Source: Candidatus Njordarchaeota archaeon (GTDB taxonomy: Archaea > Asgardarchaeota > Njordarchaeia > Njordarchaeales > Panguiarchaeaceae). Taken from it: a DNA stretch of 8,390 nt. The stretch is from assembly GCA_030587585.2 (NCBI GenBank), contig JAUQYS020000294.1:1-8390 (forward strand), given 5' to 3'. Positions 1-8,390 of this stretch are shown here, piece after piece. The notes under the pieces were generated by a model. The model was not told where the DNA came from, made no database searches, and was given only the letters and a program-made list of their open reading frames with translations. A program made the translations under genes and the position numbers. Position 1 is the first letter of the stretch, and every line of letters starts with the position of its first letter.

Positions 1-1
1 T

Positions 2-397
2 GTGGGTTTAAGCTGGGAGGAGTTTATTAAAAAAGGAGGTTACTATATAAGACATATGTATGGACTTGAGGGCTCAAAAAAAGACTATAATTCACCTAAG
101 TGTGATACCATAATATCAAAATATTTTTGTCCATTTGCTAGAATGGATTTTTCAGATCTTAGAAAAGCCCTAAAAAAAATTAATCCTAAAATTAAAGATG
201 AGGAAATAGAAGAGATTCATAATTTATGCCTGTTAAGAAATTATCGAAAAGCCTGTGGAGTTTTTTTAAGGTCTATTGGAGGCTCAAAAATAAGGATAAA
301 TATTGTTTCGCATCCTGTTCAATATGTTAGGGCTTTATGGAAGATTATGGGTAAGAGGCGAAAGAAAAGTGAGGACGAGGCGAAAAATATATCCTAA
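2..397 (+). CDS. priL: DNA primase large subunit (PriL), C-terminal Fe-S domain; 5' end lies outside the window
   Basis: The translation contains YYIRHMYGLEGSKKDYNSPKCDTIISKYFCPF, then RKACGVF, then SHPVQYV. From memory this matches the eukaryotic/archaeal PriL/PRIM2 C-terminal pattern Y-x-IRH-x-(F/Y)G-x-EG...Y-x(3)-C...CPF...AC...HP-x-Q(F/Y), which carries three of the four Fe-S cysteines. The ORF is open to the window edge and stops with TAA at 395-397. Confidence 0.7.
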   Translation: MGLSWEEFIKKGGYYIRHMYGLEGSKKDYNSPKCDTIISKYFCPFARMDFSDLRKALKKINPKIKDEEIEEIHNLCLLRNYRKACGVFLRSIGGSKIRINIVSHPVQYVRALWKIMGKRRKKSEDEAKNIS

Positions 398-1160
398 GAT
401 TTTTCTGAGAACACATATTACTGGATATGACCCATATTTGTTGAGGGATAAAGTTGTTTCTATATTTGGTGTTGGTGGGATAGGAGCTGTTTTAGCGGAG
501 ATTCTTGTTAGAGTAGGTGTTGGAAACATAGTAATAGTGGATAAAGACATTGTCGAAGAAGAAAATCTAAATAGGTTAGGATACTATGTTGGTGATATAG
601 GAAAACCGAAAGTAGATGTCCTTAGCGAGCGGCTCTTAGCGTTTAGGAGAATTATGGGCAAAAATTTTGATGTTAAAATCGAGAAATATTACGCAAACAT
701 CTTCGATTTTCCTGAAATAGATGATATAATAAAAAGATCTGATTGCGTTCTTGCGGCTCTGGATGATATTGATGCTAGACTGGAAGTGAATAGATACGCT
801 ATAAGACATAGAAAGGTCTTAATAGACGGGGGGGCATCAACAAATGGTTTAAGAGGAAGAGTTACTGTTGTAAAACCATTTATTTGGCCATGTCTTGCAT
901 GTTACTACATGCCAGACACTATGATAGAACAGGGGGATTTATCGAATTTAACGTGTAATGTTAGTCTGCCTACGACAATGTGTATAATTGCTGCTATTCA
1001 AGCTGATCAATGCCTGAAATATCTGCTTAAAAAAAGTGGTTTGAAACCACTAACATTAATATCGTTAGAAGAGGGAATTAAAATAAGTCAAATAGAAACA
1101 ATAAAACGTAGACCAGATTGTCCATATTGCGCTGGTGAGATAGTTGACCAAGAAAATTGA
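324..1160 (+). CDS. ThiF/MoeB/UbaA-family E1-like adenylyltransferase (no rhodanese domain)
   Basis: It has a Rossmann motif VSIFGVGGIGAVLAE and the motif VDKDIVEEENLNRL (family pattern D-x-D-x-V-x(2)-s-N-L-n-R). LIDGGASTNGLRGRVTVV is followed by two CxxC pairs, WPCLACYY and RPDCPYC, which form the Zn site typical of MoeB/ThiF/archaeal E1-like enzymes. The start is uncertain: candidates are TTG 303, ATG 324 and GTG 369, and all overlap the priL 3' end. The stop is TGA at 1158-1160. Confidence 0.85.
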   Translation: MLGLYGRLWVRGERKVRTRRKIYPKIFLRTHITGYDPYLLRDKVVSIFGVGGIGAVLAEILVRVGVGNIVIVDKDIVEEENLNRLGYYVGDIGKPKVDVLSERLLAFRRIMGKNFDVKIEKYYANIFDFPEIDDIIKRSDCVLAALDDIDARLEVNRYAIRHRKVLIDGGASTNGLRGRVTVVKPFIWPCLACYYMPDTMIEQGDLSNLTCNVSLPTTMCIIAAIQADQCLKYLLKKSGLKPLTLISLEEGIKISQIETIKRRPDCPYCAGEIVDQEN

Positions 1161-1530
1161 AAAAAATGATAATCGAGAGCATAATAGCGAGATAATAAAA
1201 ATAGAGGTTGAGGCTATCGAGACGCCAAGGGGGCTTGTTCCTACAATCTCTAGTGTAACTAGTATAGTACAAGCTTTAAACAAAGTTTTGGAGTCGATAG
1301 CTAAGATGATAACTGAGATCGTTGAGGAGCTGAGGAAAAATACGGAAGCTATGGAGAAGGTAGCGAATAGTATCCGCTCGTTGGACGCAAAAATGGATGT
1401 TTTGCAATCATTGCTAACAGAGATAAAAATTAATATGGAGCGAAATACTACCGATTCAAGCACAAAAAAGTTTGCAGAAAATAGAAGGAGAGATGTTAAA
1501 AAAGATCTTTTTAACCTTCTGAAAGAATAA
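1144..1530 (+). CDS. Hypothetical K/E-rich coiled-coil protein
   Basis: It is co-oriented with the E1-like gene and overlaps its 3' end by 17 nt, and it ends 5 nt before the next ATG. A heptad-like stretch runs IVQALNKVLESIAKMITEIVEELRKNTEAMEKVANSIRSLDAKMDVLQSLLTEIK. The composition resembles the other proteins here, whereas the antisense ORF 1065-1544 is F/L/S-rich shadow. The start codon is TTG at 1144 and the first ATG is at 1306, so the N-terminus is uncertain. I recognise no family. Confidence 0.45.
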   Translation: MTKKIEKNDNREHNSEIIKIEVEAIETPRGLVPTISSVTSIVQALNKVLESIAKMITEIVEELRKNTEAMEKVANSIRSLDAKMDVLQSLLTEIKINMERNTTDSSTKKFAENRRRDVKKDLFNLLKE

Positions 1531-1535
1531 AAACT

Positions 1536-2222
1536 ATGTTCCATTATTTCTCCAGTGAAAGTAAAATAGAGAAAGAGCAGATAAGCAAAATGAAGAGCGA
1601 AAAGATAAGCATAACTAAGAAAGTGGAAATAATGAAAAGAATAGTTGAGAGGCTATATATGTATAGAAGCGTAGAACGTGCTTTAATAGAGAATATTGAC
1701 GGTATTTCTATTTTTGATTTTACTACCGATCTTGATAATGCATGGAAGAAGGCTTTTAAATTCTTTAAAGATAGCTTGTTCTTAAGCAGTATATTATTGC
1801 TACTAAAATATTCTGAGCGAAGCTTAGGAGATATTCTTAGTTTTTTTAGAGAAATATTTCCACTAGCCCAAGCAGAGGCTAATATGAAATATAAATGTGA
1901 ATCGGTAGCGAGGAAGGTAGTCTTTAGACTTAATTTGCTATCCGCAATAGGAGGGTTGTCCGTCGGGATAATTATAGGACTATTTTTTATTTTCGGTGCA
2001 TTTCAAAATATAGTTAACCAATTTTCATGGATATATGGCATTTTTCTTCTTGTTTTAATAATAACAAGTATTGCTCTAGGAGCCTACAAATTAGACATTA
2101 TGGTAACTCTCATAGTATTGAATGACACATTATCGGATAAGGTTAGAATAAGACCTATACTGTTAGCCTTATGTTTTTCCTTACTAGCTTTTGTGTTGGT
2201 TTTTTCTTTGCTGATGTATTAG
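1536..2222 (+). CDS. Hypothetical membrane protein (soluble N-terminal half, about three C-terminal TM helices)
   Basis: The ATG at 1536 lies 5 nt after the previous stop. Hydrophobic segments are LSAIGGLSVGIIIGLFFIFGAF, IYGIFLLVLIITSIALGAY and ILLALCFSLLAFVLVFSLLMY. I recognise no family. Confidence 0.55.
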   Translation: MFHYFSSESKIEKEQISKMKSEKISITKKVEIMKRIVERLYMYRSVERALIENIDGISIFDFTTDLDNAWKKAFKFFKDSLFLSSILLLLKYSERSLGDILSFFREIFPLAQAEANMKYKCESVARKVVFRLNLLSAIGGLSVGIIIGLFFIFGAFQNIVNQFSWIYGIFLLVLIITSIALGAYKLDIMVTLIVLNDTLSDKVRIRPILLALCFSLLAFVLVFSLLMY

Positions 2223-2287
2223 ACTATTAGTAGTATTGAACAATAGCGATCGATAACAGCATTAATAAATCCATTTAATCAATATGA

Positions 2288-2298
2288 TTTTTATTAAA
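2288..2298 (+). promoter_or_regulatory. Putative TATA-box-like element upstream of the EF-2-like gene
   Basis: TTTTTATTAAA lies about 50-60 nt upstream of ATG 2347. A GGTG Shine-Dalgarno-like motif at 2335-2338 lies 8 nt upstream of the ATG. This call rests on position and sequence only. Confidence 0.3.
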
Positions 2299-2346
2299 TT
2301 CCTTAGTTAAAGATAAGAAGCATTTAGAAAATATGGTGTTAGCAAA

Positions 2347-4599
2347 ATGGTAAAAATCAAAGGCGCCGAAGAAATAAGACAACTAATAAAGAAGTTACCA
2401 TTAGAACAAAAAAGAATATTCAGCATTGTGGCGCATATAGATCATGGAAAGAGCACAATGTGCGACTACTTACTTGCCCGTGCGGGACTTATGTCAGAAG
2501 AGCTAGCGGGAGAAAAAAGAATGACAGACTATGACGAAGAAGAACAGAAAAGAATAATAACGATATTCACAACCGTAGTTAATTTGCTTTATAAATACAA
2601 AGACAAGGAATATCTAATTCAACTTAACGATACTCCTGGGCATATATCATTCACAGGAGAGGTATCCCGAGCCATACGTGCAAGTGATGGAATAATATTA
2701 CTTGTTGACGCTGTAGAAGGCGTAATGACGCAGACTATAACAAATCTCAAACTGGCCCTAAAGGAAGGCTGCAAACCCGTATTATACATAAACAAGGTAG
2801 ATAGGCTTATCTCAGAATTGAGACTTAGCCCGCAAGAAGTTGTATCAAAAATAGACAACATAATTCGAGAAGTAAACAAACTCATAGAAAATTACGCCCC
2901 CGAGGGATACAAGAAAAAATGGAAAGTAAATTTTGCAGACGGTAGCGTGGCAGTAGGCTCAGCAAAAGATGGCTGGGGCTTTACGTTTGACATATTGAAG
3001 AAAAAGTTTCCAGACCCAAAGGAGGGGTACATAAAAATATTCAAAAAATATGAGGAAGGAGACTTAGACTGGCTAAGAGAAAACTTGCCTCTCGATGAAG
3101 CAATATTGGAGATGGTTATAAAGCATCTACCTAATCCCAAAGAAGCCCAAAAATATAAAATAGAATCAATCTGGAGAGGACGAAAAGACATAGACGCGTA
3201 TGAAGCACTAATAAATGTAGACCAAAAAGGTCCCCTAATAGGCATGATAACAAAAATCTTTGTCCACCCAAAAACATTTCAAACGGCACTCATAGGCAGG
3301 ATATGGTCAGGTGTGCTTTCCAGTGATACCGAACTATACCTACTAAGCAAAGGAACAACAGCACGCCCTCACAGATTGGGAGTAATGGAAATAACAGACA
3401 TACTAGATGTAGACAAAATACCAGCAGGAAATCTCTTCGCAATGACGGGATTCCTCGTTCCAGCAGGAGAAAGCTTTATAAGCTCCGAGACATACGAGGA
3501 ATATAAAGATCTTATCGAGACCGGAGAATTTGGCTTTGAACCAATACCCTACGCAAGCGAACCAGTAGTTTCGAGAGCAATAAGACCAAAAGACCCAAAT
3601 GAGCTAGATACACTGGCCAAAGTAGCTGAGATGTGGGTTGCGGCCGACCCAACAGCAAAGTTTTATTTGGATAGAGAATCTAACCAATACATCCTAGCGG
3701 GAATAGACCCATTGCAGCTAGAGATTCTAATAAAAAGAATAAACATGAAGGTCTCAGTAGAAGTTGATGAACCGATCATAGTATATAGAGAGAGAATAGA
3801 AAAGAAAGGAATCGAAATAACAACAAAGTCCCCTAACGCTCTTAATAGACTAACTCTCTATGTCGAACCACTAGAAGAAGGCGTAGCCGACGCCATAAGA
3901 AAAGGTATAATAAAAGAAGAACAAGAACCCAAAGCCCGAGCGAGAATACTCAGAGAAAACTTCGGATGGGAAACACACCTAGCGAAAAACATAATAGCAA
4001 TGGAAGAAACAAACGTACTAATAAACGCAACAATAGGAGTACAAAGATTCGACAGAGTGAGAGACTACATAATAGCAACATTCAAGGACTTCTGCAGAGG
4101 CGGGCCTATAGCAAAAGAACCAGTCCAAAACCTCAAAGTCGTTATAACTGACGCAATAGTACACGAAGACCCTGTCCATACACAGATGGGCCAAATATTC
4201 CCAATGACATATGCGGCGTTAGCAGTATCATTCCTAACAGGAAATCCAGCATTATACGAACCAGTTCTCAGAGTAGATATAAAAGCACCTCAAAGATTTA
4301 TGGGACCGCTAATAACACTATTATCACAACGCAGAGGCAGAATATACGAAACAACGATCGAAGGAGAAGACGTCCACATAGTAGCCCATGTACCAGTCCC
4401 AGAAACCTTAGATCTTGCAGAAAAACTCAGATCGATCTCCAGCGGAAGAGCATTCTTTGGGTATCAATTCGAAACATGGTGGAAAGTCCCAGAAAGCATG
4501 AGCGAAGACCTAATCAAACAAATAAGAAAACGCAAAAAACTAAAAGAGGAACCACCAACAGTAAAAGACTTCGAAAGATTTATTTATCAGCGCACCTGA
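2347..4599 (+). CDS. Elongation factor 2 (aEF-2/EF-G) family translational GTPase, divergent (possible aEF-2 paralog)
   Basis: The 750-aa ORF is collinear with aEF-2. It has G1 AHIDHGKST, G3 DTPGH, G4 NKVD and GSAKDGWGF, and a domain IV/V-like C-terminus ending KEEPPTVKDF (canonical P-N-PPT-x-KD). Functionally critical loops deviate and are described in the findings. Confidence 0.93.
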   Translation: MVKIKGAEEIRQLIKKLPLEQKRIFSIVAHIDHGKSTMCDYLLARAGLMSEELAGEKRMTDYDEEEQKRIITIFTTVVNLLYKYKDKEYLIQLNDTPGHISFTGEVSRAIRASDGIILLVDAVEGVMTQTITNLKLALKEGCKPVLYINKVDRLISELRLSPQEVVSKIDNIIREVNKLIENYAPEGYKKKWKVNFADGSVAVGSAKDGWGFTFDILKKKFPDPKEGYIKIFKKYEEGDLDWLRENLPLDEAILEMVIKHLPNPKEAQKYKIESIWRGRKDIDAYEALINVDQKGPLIGMITKIFVHPKTFQTALIGRIWSGVLSSDTELYLLSKGTTARPHRLGVMEITDILDVDKIPAGNLFAMTGFLVPAGESFISSETYEEYKDLIETGEFGFEPIPYASEPVVSRAIRPKDPNELDTLAKVAEMWVAADPTAKFYLDRESNQYILAGIDPLQLEILIKRINMKVSVEVDEPIIVYRERIEKKGIEITTKSPNALNRLTLYVEPLEEGVADAIRKGIIKEEQEPKARARILRENFGWETHLAKNIIAMEETNVLINATIGVQRFDRVRDYIIATFKDFCRGGPIAKEPVQNLKVVITDAIVHEDPVHTQMGQIFPMTYAALAVSFLTGNPALYEPVLRVDIKAPQRFMGPLITLLSQRRGRIYETTIEGEDVHIVAHVPVPETLDLAEKLRSISSGRAFFGYQFETWWKVPESMSEDLIKQIRKRKKLKEEPPTVKDFERFIYQRT

Positions 4600-4615
4600 A
4601 GCCAAGACAGGTGCA

Positions 4616-4633
4616 TTTTTTTAAATGTTTTTT
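4616..4633 (+). terminator. Putative oligo-T terminator after the EF-2-like gene
   Basis: A T7 run at 4616-4622 and a T6 run at 4628-4633 begin 17 nt after the stop at 4599. Archaeal termination commonly uses oligo-T tracts. Confidence 0.35.
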
Positions 4634-4744
4634 GTTCTTCGAAAACCTCGTCGCAATTTATCCTATCTACTCTTGTATTAATTTTTATGGCAAAAACATT
4701 CTTTGTCGTATAGATATTCTTTTTCAGAAAGTCACTAAATGTCG

Positions 4745-4856
4745 TATCCATTGTCAGGAAAACTATCCATTCGCTAATTGTGGTTTTGTATAGCAAATTG
4801 TTTTTTGGTTTACATACTGAACATTATACAAAAGTATCCACATATTATCCAGATAT
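4745..4856 (+). repeat. Cluster of four TATCCA-core direct repeats in an intergenic region
   Basis: TATCCATT occurs at 4745-4752 and 4764-4771. Two abutting 11-mers are TATCCACATAT at 4835-4845 and TATCCAGATAT at 4846-4856. Confidence 0.5.
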
Positions 4857-4877
4857 TGCTATACTTTGAAAAACATT

Positions 4878-4896
4878 CCTTGAATAGTATTCAAGG
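4878..4896. promoter_or_regulatory. Perfect 9-1-9 palindrome, operator-like, just upstream of the 276-aa ORF
   Basis: The sequence is CCTTGAATA-g-TATTCAAGG, and it ends 8 nt before ATG 4905. Confidence 0.4.
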
Positions 4897-4904
4897 GAAA
4901 AAGT

Positions 4905-5735
4905 ATGCCCATTAATACTGAGTATAATTCGATGAGCAATCTCGTAAATATACTATCTTACATTGAGTACATACTCTCCGAAATAGACTATCTCTATTTG
5001 CGAGTTTTATTTTTTCGCAACAACAAGCTTCTGCTAAAAAATAAAATTGATAAAAACATACTAAAACTCTACGAGCAGCTGCTCGGCACATATGAGCGAT
5101 TAATTAACTCAATAATAAAAAGAAAGCTCAACCTCCAAAAACAAATTAGATCATGCAGTACTACTATAGCCGAAAACACTGTGAAACCTCCCAAGGATAC
5201 AATCGATAAATTCGCATCGACCATAAATTCCCGCATTATATCGAATCTTCAACAAATAGAGGAAAAAATAAATATCCTAAGAAAGCATTTATCATCGCTT
5301 AATAGAGTCTATGAATATCTAACGGGACTTGATATACTTGATAATCTTGAACATAATGAACACGTACTATACATGTTAGCTTTTGATAACCAAAGAATTA
5401 TCATCACTAACATCAGGATATTCGTCCACGACGCGTCTAAAGGAACCGTCAATTTTTTCTATATTACGGATATCGAAAAGATACTATTAAAAAACTCATT
5501 ATTCTTTAAAGGTTGCATAATTAAGCTCATAGACAAAAGCAAAATAAAAATACCTCTATCTCTGCGTAAATCTAAGCATTTAAAAAGAATACTCACTAAA
5601 GTTATCAATCTAAACAAAAACTCACTGAAATATTCTCCTAAAAAAATTATCGACGAAAGATCTCTTATTCGCCCAAATATAAAAACACTAAAAACCGAAT
5701 TATTAAGATGCATTCTAGACAACCACACAAGGTAG
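4905..5735 (+). CDS. Hypothetical protein: N-terminal coiled-coil region plus a possible PH-like C-terminal domain
   Basis: It is a long ATG-initiated ORF with the same I/K/N/L-rich composition as its neighbours. The C-terminal segment EHVLYMLAFDNQRIIITNIRIFVHDASKGTVNFFYITDIEKILLK loosely resembles the bacterial/archaeal PH (bPH/GRAM-like) pattern E-x-V-l...l-x-l-T-n-x-R-i. This is a weak assignment from memory. Confidence 0.55.
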   Translation: MPINTEYNSMSNLVNILSYIEYILSEIDYLYLRVLFFRNNKLLLKNKIDKNILKLYEQLLGTYERLINSIIKRKLNLQKQIRSCSTTIAENTVKPPKDTIDKFASTINSRIISNLQQIEEKINILRKHLSSLNRVYEYLTGLDILDNLEHNEHVLYMLAFDNQRIIITNIRIFVHDASKGTVNFFYITDIEKILLKNSLFFKGCIIKLIDKSKIKIPLSLRKSKHLKRILTKVINLNKNSLKYSPKKIIDERSLIRPNIKTLKTELLRCILDNHTR

Positions 5736-5807
5736 AAAATTCATCCATTATTATGCATTTAAATCAAAGCACATCTAGAAATAACTAAAGAATTTCTAAT
5801 TGAAGAA

Positions 5808-5964
5808 TAGCGTGGGGGTTTCCGAGTTCGAAATGGGTTCGGGCGTGACCCGCACCCTATGGCCGTCCACTCAAAAGAGCGGACAGCACCGCCCTTTCGC
5901 CTGGGGTCCCCCACCAGACTACTCAGGCAGGCGTGGCGCGGCTTAGCTTTCGGCCCCCACACTA
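5808..5964 (-). other. Leader/trailer processing stem with BHB-like motif enclosing the permuted 5S rRNA
   Basis: Leader UAGUGUGGGGG (5964-5954) pairs with trailer CCCCCACGCUA (5818-5808), giving 11 bp with one G-U. Adjacent to it is a 4-bp helix CCGA (5953-5950) / UCGG (5825-5822), flanked by 3-nt unpaired AAG (5949-5947) and AAA (5821-5819) on opposite strands. Confidence 0.6.
5820..5947 (-). rRNA. 5S rRNA, circularly permuted gene (3' half, UUUU-capped helix I, then 5' half)
   Basis: The minus-strand RNA is GCUAAGCCGCGCCACGCCUGCCUGAGUAGUCUGGUGGGGGACCCCAGGCGAAAGGGCGGUGCUGUCCGCUCUUUUGAGUGGACGGCCAUAGGGUGCGGGUCACGCCCGAACCCAUUUCGAACUCGGAA (128 nt). All 5S hallmarks are present: GGCCAUAG loop A, helix II GGUGCGG/CCGCGCC, helix III GCCCGA/UCGG-AA-GC, loop C CCCAUUUCGAAC, GCUAAGCC, a loop-E-type AGUA/GAA motif, a helix IV hairpin, and helix I GUGGACGG/CUGUCCGC. 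Their order is permuted. Removing the 8-nt cap and rejoining the ends gives a 120-nt canonical 5S. Confidence 0.85.
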
Positions 5965-6001
5965 CCACAATAACCATTTATTTTTTCAACACTATCTCTG
6001 A

Positions 6002-6009
6002 TTTAAAAA
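6002..6009 (-). promoter_or_regulatory. Putative TATA box for the 5S rRNA transcript
   Basis: The minus strand reads TTTTTAAA, about 40 nt upstream of the start of the leader stem (5964). That placement would give a transcript start roughly 10-15 nt before the stem. This call rests on sequence and position only. Confidence 0.3.
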
Positions 6010-6019
6010 GTTTATTAAT

Positions 6020-6025
6020 AAAAAA
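6020..6025 (-). terminator. Putative oligo-T terminator after the tRNA-Val/tRNA-Gly pair
   Basis: A minus-strand T6 run lies 17-22 nt downstream of the tRNA-Gly 3' end. Confidence 0.3.
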
Positions 6026-6041
6026 CACTATCTAAAACAGA

Positions 6042-6127
6042 TGCGCCGGGCGGGACTCGAACCCGCGTCACCAGCTTGGGAGGCTGGCTTTAGGAGATGT
6101 ATTATCCTACCGCTAGACCACCGGCGC
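6042..6127 (-). tRNA. tRNA-Gly(CCC) with a 15-nt intron at non-canonical position 25/26; CCA not encoded
   Basis: I folded it by hand. The acceptor is GCGCCGG/CCGGCGC, the D arm is GUCU-AGCGGUA-GGAU, and the anticodon arm is CCAGC-CUCCCAA-GCUGG (anticodon CCC). The variable region is UGAC, the T arm is GCGGG-UUCGAGU-CCCGC, and the discriminator is A. It is 86 nt as encoded and 71 nt after removal of AAUACAUCUCCUAAA. Confidence 0.9.
6089..6103 (-). other. tRNA-Gly intron between the D stem and nucleotide 26
   Basis: Fifteen extra nt (AAUACAUCUCCUAAA) sit between GGAU (22-25) and G26-CCAGC. Intron CCUA pairs with exon UAGG (20-23) as a 4-bp central helix with 3-nt bulges AUA and AAG. Cutting 2 nt into each bulge restores the canonical GGAU-G-CCAGC. 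Confidence 0.75.
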
Positions 6128-6135
6128 GCTGGAAG

Positions 6136-6208
6136 TGGGCCGGGGCGGACTCGAACCGCCGACCTTCCCGTCGTAAGCGGGACGCCATAGCCACTAGGCC
6201 ACCGGCCC
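6136..6208 (-). tRNA. tRNA-Val(UAC), intron-less; CCA not encoded
   Basis: I folded it by hand. The acceptor is GGGCCGG/CCGGCCC, the D arm is GCCU-AGUGGCUA-UGGC, and nucleotide 26 is G. The anticodon arm is UCCCG-CUUACGA-CGGGA (anticodon UAC), the variable region is AGGUC, the T arm is GGCGG-UUCGAGU-CCGCC, and the discriminator is A. It is 73 nt long. Confidence 0.9.
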
Positions 6209-6227
6209 AAAAAACCAACTATATTGG

Positions 6228-6238
6228 TTTTATACTAT
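6228..6238 (-). promoter_or_regulatory. Putative TATA box for the tRNA-Val/tRNA-Gly transcript
   Basis: The minus strand reads ATAGTATAAAA, spanning about -30 to -20 relative to tRNA-Val nucleotide 1 (6208). That implies initiation at or within a few nt of the mature 5' end. Confidence 0.35.
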
Positions 6239-6363
6239 TTTCTATTTTTTGGTATCTACTCATCTCTATACTAAAGGATAATACTATTATTTACGTTTTT
6301 ATTTTTGGGTTTTTTATATCTATAATTAGTTTAAGATTTTTTAACTGTCTGGGGGATCTAGAT

Positions 6364-6552
6364 ATGACGCATGGATCGTTGGATAAGGCTGGTAAAGTTA
6401 GGAGGGCTACTCTAGAAGCCTTAAGAATGCTTGGTATAACTCCGCGGGAGCATCATACTCCTTCGCCTCGAGTAGCAAAAAGGGAGGCATATTGGAAAAG
6501 ATTTATTAAGAATTATAGAATAGGACAACCACCAAAAAGAAGGCGTTTATAA
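6364..6552 (+). CDS. rps30e: Ribosomal protein eS30 (S30e)
   Basis: The 62-aa protein is MTHGSLDKAGKVRRAT...PRVAKREAYWKRF...PPKRRRL. The N-terminal HGSL-x-KAGKVR motif and the basic tail are characteristic of eS30. The ATG at 6364 is preceded by GGGGGAT, a Shine-Dalgarno-like motif. The longer track ORF from 6097 runs through the tRNA genes and is rejected. Confidence 0.8.
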   Translation: MTHGSLDKAGKVRRATLEALRMLGITPREHHTPSPRVAKREAYWKRFIKNYRIGQPPKRRRL

Positions 6553-6554
6553 TT

Positions 6555-7091
6555 CTATTCCATCATTTTTCTATAATACCTTGCTATTCTATATTCCTCA
6601 ATTTTTTTCATAACTCTGTTAATTTTACTACCTCTACAGATAGATAATACAGCCTCCTTTGCTACCATAACATCGTCATATCTTCCAATTATTGCTACGT
6701 ACTTATCGTAGATAGATATCCTAACACTAAGTTCATCTTCAAACTTCATTCGAATTTTTCCTCCGCGGCCTATTAGCCGCGATTTTATCCTCGATATATC
6801 CCTCCTGTTCCTAGCATAATCACTTATATCTACAACCTCGAAAATATATTCTGGATTTTCAATCAAAATGAAAGCATTCGCCGGAGAAAAACCATATGAA
6901 ATCGCGGTTATTACCATTTTGGCTCTAAGAACATTATCTATGTTACCCCTAGACGCTATTATAATTATTTCACCTCGATTAGCATTAATTTTAATTTCTA
7001 CTCCTAATTTCTGTTCTATTTTCTTTTTTACATCTTGTTTGGAGCCAATAATTACGCCTACACGGCCATAATCTATTGGAACCACAACCAT
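6555..7091 (-). CDS. KH-domain RNA-binding protein, Dim2/Pno1-like (archaeal aDim2)
   Basis: It has two KH-like modules: VVVPIDYGRVGVIIGSKQDVKKKIEQKLGVEI, and RIKSRLIGRGGKIRMKFEDELSVRISIYDKYVAIIG (GxxG motif GRGG). It also has AISYGFSPANAF (family pattern A-i-x-r-G-F-s-p-x-x-A). I prefer the ATG at 7091. An alternative GTG at 7133 would overlap the upstream gene by 11 nt. Confidence 0.85.
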   Translation of the reverse strand: MVVVPIDYGRVGVIIGSKQDVKKKIEQKLGVEIKINANRGEIIIIASRGNIDNVLRAKMVITAISYGFSPANAFILIENPEYIFEVVDISDYARNRRDISRIKSRLIGRGGKIRMKFEDELSVRISIYDKYVAIIGRYDDVMVAKEAVLSICRGSKINRVMKKIEEYRIARYYRKMME

Positions 7092-7122
7092 TATTTTTCC
7101 TGAATTCTGCACCACTGACCCC

Positions 7123-7809
7123 CTAAATCTCACCCTCTAAGTTTTTTAATATGCTTCTAAACATTAATAGTAAGCTTCTTTTTATTTTAAGCTGCATGTC
7201 AGCAGTTAGTTCTCTTGACCTTAGAGACCCCAAGAGCTTATCTATGTACTCTGTAAATATGTTAAGTGACTTTGTGTTCATATTACTGAGATAAAATTTG
7301 ACCTTGGAAAGACTAGCTATCAAGTTTTCTTTATCGCCAATACTTAGGCTCTTTCTAGCTTCAAGAATTTCTTTCTTTAATAATTCGACAATTTCTGACT
7401 TGGATATAGAACTAGCACCATCGAGAACTGATTTTATATCTCGAAGAGTCTCAATTATTAGGGATAGAGGAATATTGGATTTTGGGGGATAAACACTTGT
7501 TACTGATAGACCTCTGTATCCCAAATAGACACAATCCATATCGTCAATCCTGAATCTGACTTGTATAATGGGTATATTATCGCAACGGAGGCTGATGTTA
7601 TATTTTGACTTGAGATCCATCATAAATTCCATTTCTAGTTTATATAGCAACCACGTTCTTATAGATGGTAATATTATCAGAACATTTCTAAATTTTTCGT
7701 CTCCCACAAAACATATTTCAAAGCCATCCAAGTCAGAGATATAAACGGCTTTTGCGCCTGCTTCAATAAGCCTGCTAGCTATTTGGTTTATCTGCTCTAT
7801 GCCACTCAT
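7123..7809 (-). CDS. Roadblock/LC7 (MglB-like) domain protein with a helical C-terminal extension
   Basis: The N-terminal roughly 110 aa are INQIASRLIEAGAKAVYISDLDGFEICFVGDE...ISLRCDNIPIIQVRFRIDDMDCVYLGY. They fit the Roadblock/LC7 pattern (l..l...gv.ga.lv..dG..ia ... e.g.i.i..i.d..L.v). The gene lies immediately downstream of, and is co-oriented with, an MglA-type GTPase. I prefer the ATG at 7809; the track start at 7854 is a TTG. Confidence 0.55.
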   Translation of the reverse strand: MSGIEQINQIASRLIEAGAKAVYISDLDGFEICFVGDEKFRNVLIILPSIRTWLLYKLEMEFMMDLKSKYNISLRCDNIPIIQVRFRIDDMDCVYLGYRGLSVTSVYPPKSNIPLSLIIETLRDIKSVLDGASSISKSEIVELLKKEILEARKSLSIGDKENLIASLSKVKFYLSNMNTKSLNIFTEYIDKLLGSLRSRELTADMQLKIKRSLLLMFRSILKNLEGEI

Positions 7810-7818
7810 GATGAGCCC

Positions 7819-7899
7819 GATATCGAATAAATAATCAAAAGTATACCTATACAAAAATTCAAAACAACTAAAAATTAGGAAATATCATTATTCGATATC
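7819..7899. repeat. 12-nt perfect inverted repeat pair flanking a 57-nt spacer upstream of the Roadblock-like gene
   Basis: GATATCGAATAA (7819-7830) is the reverse complement of TTATTCGATATC (7888-7899). Confidence 0.4.
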
Positions 7900-7937
7900 T
7901 CTATATGTAGATAACAATTAAAAAATATCATCAATTT

Positions 7938-8390
7938 TTAGGGCAATTCCCTTATCATAGAAGACAGTATCTCGATAAATCTCTCCTTCGCATCTGGAGA
8001 TACTGCTACCATAGGGTACGAAGGAAAACCCGTAAGCTCTTCTATTACCGATGCGGGCAATCTATTACCCAAGTCCTGTTTATTAGCTATTAACGTAAAC
8101 CTAGAATACGGCGTTATTTTCATCAAGTATGGAAGAATTTCTTTTTGCAATCTTTCAACGTCTTCTCTAGATGAATCCGTGACAAGTACTACAAAGTCAG
8201 ATCCTTCCGTTGTCAGCATCCAAGTTCGCCAATATTCGGGCTGTCCCGCAACAGTGAACAACGTGACTTTAAATGGTTCTATTCCCTCAATTGCGAGCTC
8301 CTCAACATCTGCAAGAATAGTAGGAATATGTTTCGTCACGGTTTCACCTTTAGCAACAAGCTTTACAATAGTCGTCTTTCCGACACCGCC
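7938..8390 (-). CDS. MglA-family Ras-like small GTPase; 5' end lies outside the window
   Basis: The frame is open to the window edge and begins with the P-loop GGVGKTT upstream of the track's GTG start. G3 is TVAGQ, with Thr in place of the usual Asp as in Myxococcus MglA (TVPGQ). G4 is NKQD and G5-like is AVSP. The overall match to MglA includes VTLFTVAGQPEYW versus FHLYTVPGQVFY, and FVVLVTDSS versus GVVFVADSQ. Confidence 0.8.
   Translation of the reverse strand, partial: GGVGKTTIVKLVAKGETVTKHIPTILADVEELAIEGIEPFKVTLFTVAGQPEYWRTWMLTTEGSDFVVLVTDSSREDVERLQKEILPYLMKITPYSRFTLIANKQDLGNRLPASVIEELTGFPSYPMVAVSPDAKERFIEILSSMIRELP

Follow-up and report, generated by a model that had tools for sequence, protein, structure and literature searches.

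A circularly permuted 5S rRNA gene in a Candidatus Njordarchaeota archaeon, predicted to give a probably circular 5S rRNA

The analysis of an 8390-nt stretch of DNA of a Candidatus Njordarchaeota archaeon (contig JAUQYS020000294.1, assembly GCA_030587585.2, positions 1 to 8,390, hereafter the window) revealed a circularly permuted 5S rRNA gene on the minus strand (about 5967-5806). The gene consists of a leader, 5S positions 52-120, an 8-nt linker, 5S positions 1-51 and a trailer, so that the two usual ends of the molecule are joined by a small hairpin loop, whereas the new ends carry a relaxed bulge-helix-bulge (BHB)-like splicing motif. Such an arrangement predicts a covalently closed 5S rRNA with a capped helix I, which was considered the most likely mature form, although in the absence of RNA data the topology is inferred from the sequence. 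No archaeal permuted or BHB-circularised 5S was found in the literature that could be searched.

The earlier note had claimed that the 3' and 5' ends of 5S are joined in a continuous 10-bp hairpin with two G-U pairs and a UUUU loop, without bulges or a second BHB. This observation was confirmed. On the minus strand, the sequence reads CUGUCCGCUC (5886-5877), UUUU (5876-5873) and GAGUGGACGG (5872-5863), with G-U pairs at G5880-U5869 and U5885-G5864, but one more pair, G5887-C5862, extends the helix to 11 bp. Folding of 5888-5861 with ViennaRNA gave a single perfect hairpin (-20.5 kcal/mol, 99% of the ensemble, z = -7.15) and none of 200 shuffles folded as well.

To check if the arms are indeed the two strands of 5S helix I, the window was searched with Rfam models. 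At the gathering threshold only two tRNAs were found and no contiguous match to RF00001 reached the gathering score of 38 bits. In E-value mode, RF00001 aligned 5975-5878(-) to the 3' part of the model (23.4 bits) and 5870-5766(-) to the 5' part (17.7 bits), with the motifs CCCAUUUCGAACUCGGAA, UAAGCC and GAGUAG aligned to the model. With the order restored and the linker removed, the sequence was exactly 120 nt long and 81/120 identical to the Rfam consensus line. The failure at the gathering threshold is due to gene order, not to sequence. The coordinates of the identified features are collected in Table 1.

Table 1. Features of the permuted 5S rRNA locus and its surroundings in the window. 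G5947 is both the last AAG base and 5S position 52, and A5821-A5820 are both the first two AAA bases and 5S positions 50-51.
Feature	Coordinates	Strand	Remarks
TATA-like box TTTTTAAAT	6001-6009	-	Putative promoter of the permuted 5S gene, about 35-40 nt before the leader helix; inferred from the sequence
Leader	5954-5967	-	5966-5954 (GGUAGUGUGGGGG) is the 5' strand of the outer leader/trailer helix and pairs with 5818-5806
CCGA	5950-5953	-	Leader strand of the 4-bp central helix of the BHB-like motif; pairs with UCGG at 5825-5822
AAG bulge	5947-5949	-	Predicted 5' cleavage between 5948 and 5947
5S rRNA 3' part (about positions 52-120)	5879-5947	-	Helix II 3' strand, helices V/IV with loops E and D, helix I 3' strand (5887-5879)
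Linker UCUUUUGA	5871-5878	-	Two extra base pairs (5878-5877 with 5872-5871) and the UUUU loop
Capped helix I hairpin	5862-5887	-	11 bp plus tetraloop
5S rRNA 5' part (positions 1-51)	5820-5870	-	Helix I 5' strand (5870-5862), loop A, helix II 5' strand, helix III and loop C
AAA bulge	5819-5821	-	Predicted 3' cleavage between 5820 and 5819
Trailer CCCCCACGCUAUU	5806-5818	-	3' strand of the outer helix
T-rich stretch (CUUCAAUUAGAAAUUCUUUAG...)	5781-5805	-	Possible transcription stop; inferred from the sequence
T-run	6017-6028	-	Follows tRNA-Gly
tRNA-Gly(CCC)	6042-6127	-	15-nt non-canonical intron (AAUACAUCUCCUAAA) between positions 25 and 26
tRNA-Val(UAC)	6136-6208	-	Upstream of the 5S gene
Open reading frame, 72 codons	5759-5977	-	Almost certainly spurious; runs through G+C-rich RNA genes
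Open reading frame, 151 codons	6097-6552	+	Almost certainly spurious; only the last 62 codons match S30e
EF-2-like translational GTPase	2347-4599	+	750 aa
KH/PNO1-like protein	6555-7133	-	
Arf-family small GTPase	7938-8339	-	90% identical in L012/L013

The minimum-free-energy fold of the precursor paired leader and trailer over 13 bp, left AAA as a 3-nt bulge and paired the CCGA of the leader with UCGG, the 3' strand of helix III, in four Watson-Crick pairs. The AAG bulge is followed by a multiloop rather than by a helix. The outer helix h is present but the inner helix h' of the strict hBHBh' motif is absent, which corresponds to the relaxed hBH/BHL form in the classification reviewed in PMC3978253. 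Cutting after the second base of each bulge, as in the standard BHB rule, would give a 5' end at G5947 and a 3' end at A5820. Joining of these ends gives the junction CGGAA|GCUAAGC (...CUCGGAA|GCUAAGCC... or ...CGAACUCGGAA-GCUAAGCC...), which equals the Rfam consensus CggAAguUAAGc with nothing added or lost, in a circle of 128 nt. A circle would have the junction ...CGAACUCGGAA|GCUAAGCCGCG... and be continuous across GUCCGCUCUUUUGAGUGGAC, with no ends at the cap.

The same window supplied a control for the cutting rule. The gene at 6127-6042(-), called as tRNA-Val(tac) by ARAGORN, became a canonical 71-nt tRNA-Gly(CCC) after removal of its intron, which sits in a relaxed BHB (UAGG/CCUA helix, AA|G bulge) obeying the same rule. 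This suggests that the organism processes relaxed motifs of this type.

To identify other genes of this kind, a pattern demanding the permuted order (UAAGCC ... AGUA ... loop C) was used, which matched once in the window and in 0 of 200 shuffles. In one representative genome per prokaryotic species it hit 17 loci (loci and contigs recovered in this work are designated by L numbers). Eight of them (L004, L007-9, L014, L016, L017 and L019) were ordinary bacterial 23S-5S spacers matching by chance, and nine were archaeal genomes assembled from metagenomes (MAGs) with the same architecture. A variant of the pattern excluding the canonical junction hit 18 JGI metagenome contigs, all of them permuted and all genomic, with flanking DNA. 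Together with the window this gave 21 distinct sequences. A model of the permuted gene scored family members at 90-178 bits and the bacterial hits at only 19-34 bits. RF00001 at its gathering score detected none of the permuted genes in the window and the 20 related loci, hence automated annotation and MIMAG-style quality checks will report these genomes as lacking 5S rRNA.

The alignment of the 21 sequences showed 93.5% of structure cells paired, against 68.4% in shuffles (0/500 as high), with compensatory changes in 42 of 51 pairs, and sliding the partners dropped pairing to 34-53%. RNAalifold on the raw MAFFT alignment mis-drew helix III and paired the leader CG with the helix III 5' strand, therefore the Rfam-derived helix III was used and the BHB pairing was tested separately. 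A covariance-model realignment gave 94.8% of cells paired and compensatory changes in 43 of 53 pairs (shuffles 68-69%). Compensatory changes occurred in every helix. The leader/trailer helix covaried at all 14 positions, and helix I at 8 of 10 positions, with 97-99% of cells paired. The CCG of the leader was (nearly) invariant although it is not part of 5S, and its pairing with the invariant CGG is the most economical explanation. The bulges were AAA in 20 of 21 members (AAU in one) and RRG in 21 of 21. However, the fourth pair of the central helix was A-U, G-C or G-U in 11 of 21 members and G.A or A.A in 10, whereas the native helix III pair 32:46, which competes for the same UCGG strand, was Watson-Crick in 20/20 sequences, in three pair types. 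The leader base opposite position 46 tracks it only partly, A with U, G with C, but G or A with A (columns 18/153 of alignment A1 and 140/155 of alignment A3). One member, L033 (5692-5846, +; UUCG cap, good 5S covariation), lacks any leader/trailer helix and has a T6 run starting 8 nt after the AAA. TATA-like boxes of the TTTAAAAA/TTTATAAA type lay 35-47 nt upstream of the leader helix in most family members and T-rich tracts followed the trailer in most relatives.

In all 21 members helix I was an unbroken hairpin of 7-13 bp closed by a loop, although a few carried a single bulged base. The loops were UUUU, UAGA, UUCG (eight members), GUAA, GCAA, GUUA, UUAAA, CUUUAU and similar. No cap carried a BHB, a tRNA-like element or a conserved sequence, and stem length differed by up to 6 bp. 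This pattern is expected for a retained, solvent-exposed terminal stem-loop and not for a site where a nuclease must regenerate defined ends.

The contig of the window recurred in ENA, JGI and Logan assemblies. Four independent assemblies gave the same permuted gene, the flanks are non-5S leader/trailer and AT-rich DNA, and twenty other distinct sequences share the order, hence a collapsed tandem 5S repeat or an assembly artefact was rejected. One assembly diverged inside the gene. The 69-kb ENA contig L001 (13473-13862, equivalent to window 5844 onwards) is identical to the window up to 5843 and then switches to a different 5S 5' half (UGGACGGUCAAAGCGACGUGGUCACA...) directly preceded by the TATA-like TTTATAAA, followed by an eIF2-gamma start at the contig end. 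The end fragment had no match by blastn or tblastn against the other loci. This is probably a chimera formed through the conserved loop C segment, but a real canonical/split variant is not excluded.

The genes flanking the 5S, including those for the KH/PNO1-like protein, S30e, the Arf-family GTPase and two unnamed proteins, were syntenic with L012, L013, L034, L018 and L005. A tRNA cluster lies directly upstream of the 5S in the window, L005, L012, L018 and L034, and in the window the T-run after tRNA-Gly and the TATA-like box suggest a separate promoter. L018 and L020 are deposited as Candidatus Njordarchaeota and L010 as Promethearchaeati, the Asgard kingdom in NCBI taxonomy, while others are labelled Crenarchaeota or Nitrososphaerota, a spread which matches the disputed placement (Asgard or Korarchaeota) of Njordarchaeia/Panguiarchaeum (PMC12411855). 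Three contigs of about 30% G+C from estuarine or sediment metagenomes, L026 (2580-2737), L036 (about 1232-1389) and L037, carry a permuted 5S with only 43% G+C, and L036 also encodes two Ras-family small GTPases, aIF-1A and Spt5. The permuted 5S of L033 has 48% G+C. The arrangement is therefore also present in an apparently mesophilic, Asgard-like lineage, which weakens the suggestion of the earlier note that the topology has implications for exonuclease resistance and assembly in a thermophile, and it looks like a lineage trait rather than a heat adaptation.

The gene does not encode free helix I termini, and the only processing signal is the leader/trailer motif at the helix II/III junction. 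The two options proposed in the earlier note, a covalent circle or a linear RNA with ends at the helix III/loop B junction, are therefore supported as the right ones. In the favoured reading, considered somewhat more likely than not, the tRNA splicing endonuclease cuts after the second base of each bulge and RtcB joins A51 to G52, restoring the canonical loop B/helix III sequence and yielding a 128-nt closed 5S rRNA built into the large subunit with its cap retained. Cleavage, ligation, cap retention and incorporation into the ribosome are inferred. Viewed from the other side, the same BHB would be an intron at 51/52 of a collinear gene, which is the accepted route to permuted tRNA and SRP RNA genes and predicts that some relative still has such an intron.

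A less likely possibility is that cleavage occurs without ligation, leaving a linear permuted RNA with its 5' end at G52 and its 3' end at A51. The fold needs no covalent bond at this site, as helix III is a self-contained hairpin and helix II together with the capped helix I holds the two parts, and brown-algal mitochondrial 5S works as a linear molecule with a closed helix I and relocated ends (PMC4267664). However, known BHB products in archaea (introns, pre-16S/23S, SRP RNA) are ligated by RtcB (PMC4731332, PMC10515664), and trimming alone would not explain why the cuts restore the canonical sequence so precisely. Almost equally unlikely is a circular intermediate re-opened at the cap by an unknown nuclease, akin to permuted pre-tRNAs, which are matured by RNase P and tRNase Z (PMC3978253). 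The caps are only 3-5 nt loops on stems of variable length without an A/U-rich motif or any other recognised signal, the frequent UUCG and GNRA loops look like retained structural caps, and joined native ends are tolerated in engineered ribosomes (PMC7283268). Termination at the UUUU of the cap, where the helix I 3' strand followed by UCUUUU looks like a normal 5S gene end and oligo-U tracts terminate archaeal RNA polymerase, or a decaying or artefactual copy accompanied by a canonical 5S elsewhere, for which the L001 contig might speak, is very unlikely in view of relatives with caps lacking U-runs, the continued covariation between the two parts, the four concordant assemblies and the absence of a canonical 5S in about 200 kb of related archaeal contigs, although whole genomes were not scanned and such a gene is not excluded.

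It is about as likely as not that a whole archaeal lineage, comprising Njordarchaeota-type MAGs from vents and hot springs, including this organism, and at least one AT-rich lineage rich in Ras-family GTPases (Asgard-like), uses a closed circular 5S rRNA made by the tRNA splicing machinery as its only 5S. The permutation would then also be a rare genomic change, which could help to place the contested Njordarchaeia/Panguiarchaeum clade, and would explain 'missing' 5S genes in the assemblies. 5S rRNA is treated as a universal, free, linear molecule whose ends meet in helix I. A conserved gene unable to produce these ends would give the first ribosome predicted to contain a circular 5S, extend the moonlighting role of the endonuclease and RtcB to a third class of essential RNA and offer a natural test of why 5S needs, or does not need, free ends and autonomy. 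A 2023 list of natural circular permutations cites only the brown-algal mitochondrial 5S (PMC10085705, PMC4267664), and a 2023 study counts three archaeal 5S maturation pathways, none involving a BHB (PMC10515664). A permuted RNA gene repaired by the splicing machinery is a known mechanism, whereas its application to 5S rRNA and the predicted circular 5S in ribosomes are new.

The closest analogue is the permuted SRP RNA gene of Thermoproteus tenax/uzoniensis (Plagens et al. 2015, PMC4731332). The common features, partly predicted for the 5S gene, are the 3' part encoded upstream of the 5' part in one transcript, a leader/trailer BHB cut by the tRNA splicing endonuclease, ligation restoring a conserved functional element, a circular mature RNA with the conventional ends closed, invisibility to standard covariance models and a host with many non-canonical tRNA introns. 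The 5S gene differs in the RNA, a ribosome component, in the lineage (Njordarchaeota-type and related MAGs rather than Thermoproteales) and in the junction in loop B/helix III, and its processing is so far only predicted. Circularly permuted tRNA genes of Cyanidioschyzon merolae and Thermofilum pendens (PMC3978253) share the gene-level permutation, a BHB or relaxed BHB at the leader/trailer junction, a circular RNA formed by the splicing machinery, an upstream TATA-like box and a downstream T-stretch, but in the 5S gene the intervening sequence is only a hairpin loop with no recognisable processing signal.

Circular pre-16S/pre-23S rRNA and circular or permuted mature 23S rRNA in archaea (PMC7758197, PMC12918454, PMC10515664) also involve BHB-dependent excision and RtcB circularisation, and circular 23S rRNA was reported inside mature archaeal ribosomes (PMC12918454). 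Those genes are collinear, not permuted, and the 2026 paper states that this processing concerns 16S and 23S 'but not 5S' (PMC12918454). Low-abundance circular forms of canonical 5S rRNA in Sulfolobus and Halobacterium (PMC12558985, citing Danan 2012) also contain 5S sequence, but they come from normal genes, have heterogeneous junctions and no BHB, and are interpreted as linked to degradation. In the permuted mitochondrial 5S rRNA of brown algae (Valach et al. 2014, PMC4267664; Rfam mtPerm-5S), helix I is likewise replaced by a closed hairpin and the classical termini are absent, but this RNA is organellar and linear, its ends lie at the open three-way junction between domains alpha and gamma rather than at A51/G52, it has no BHB and no ligation is implied. 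The engineered cp5S rRNA of E. coli (Huang et al. 2020, PMC7283268) is artificial, opened in loop C or D and fused into 23S rRNA, yet its native ends are joined by a 4-nt connector and the ribosomes are active, which shows that the cap is structurally tolerated.
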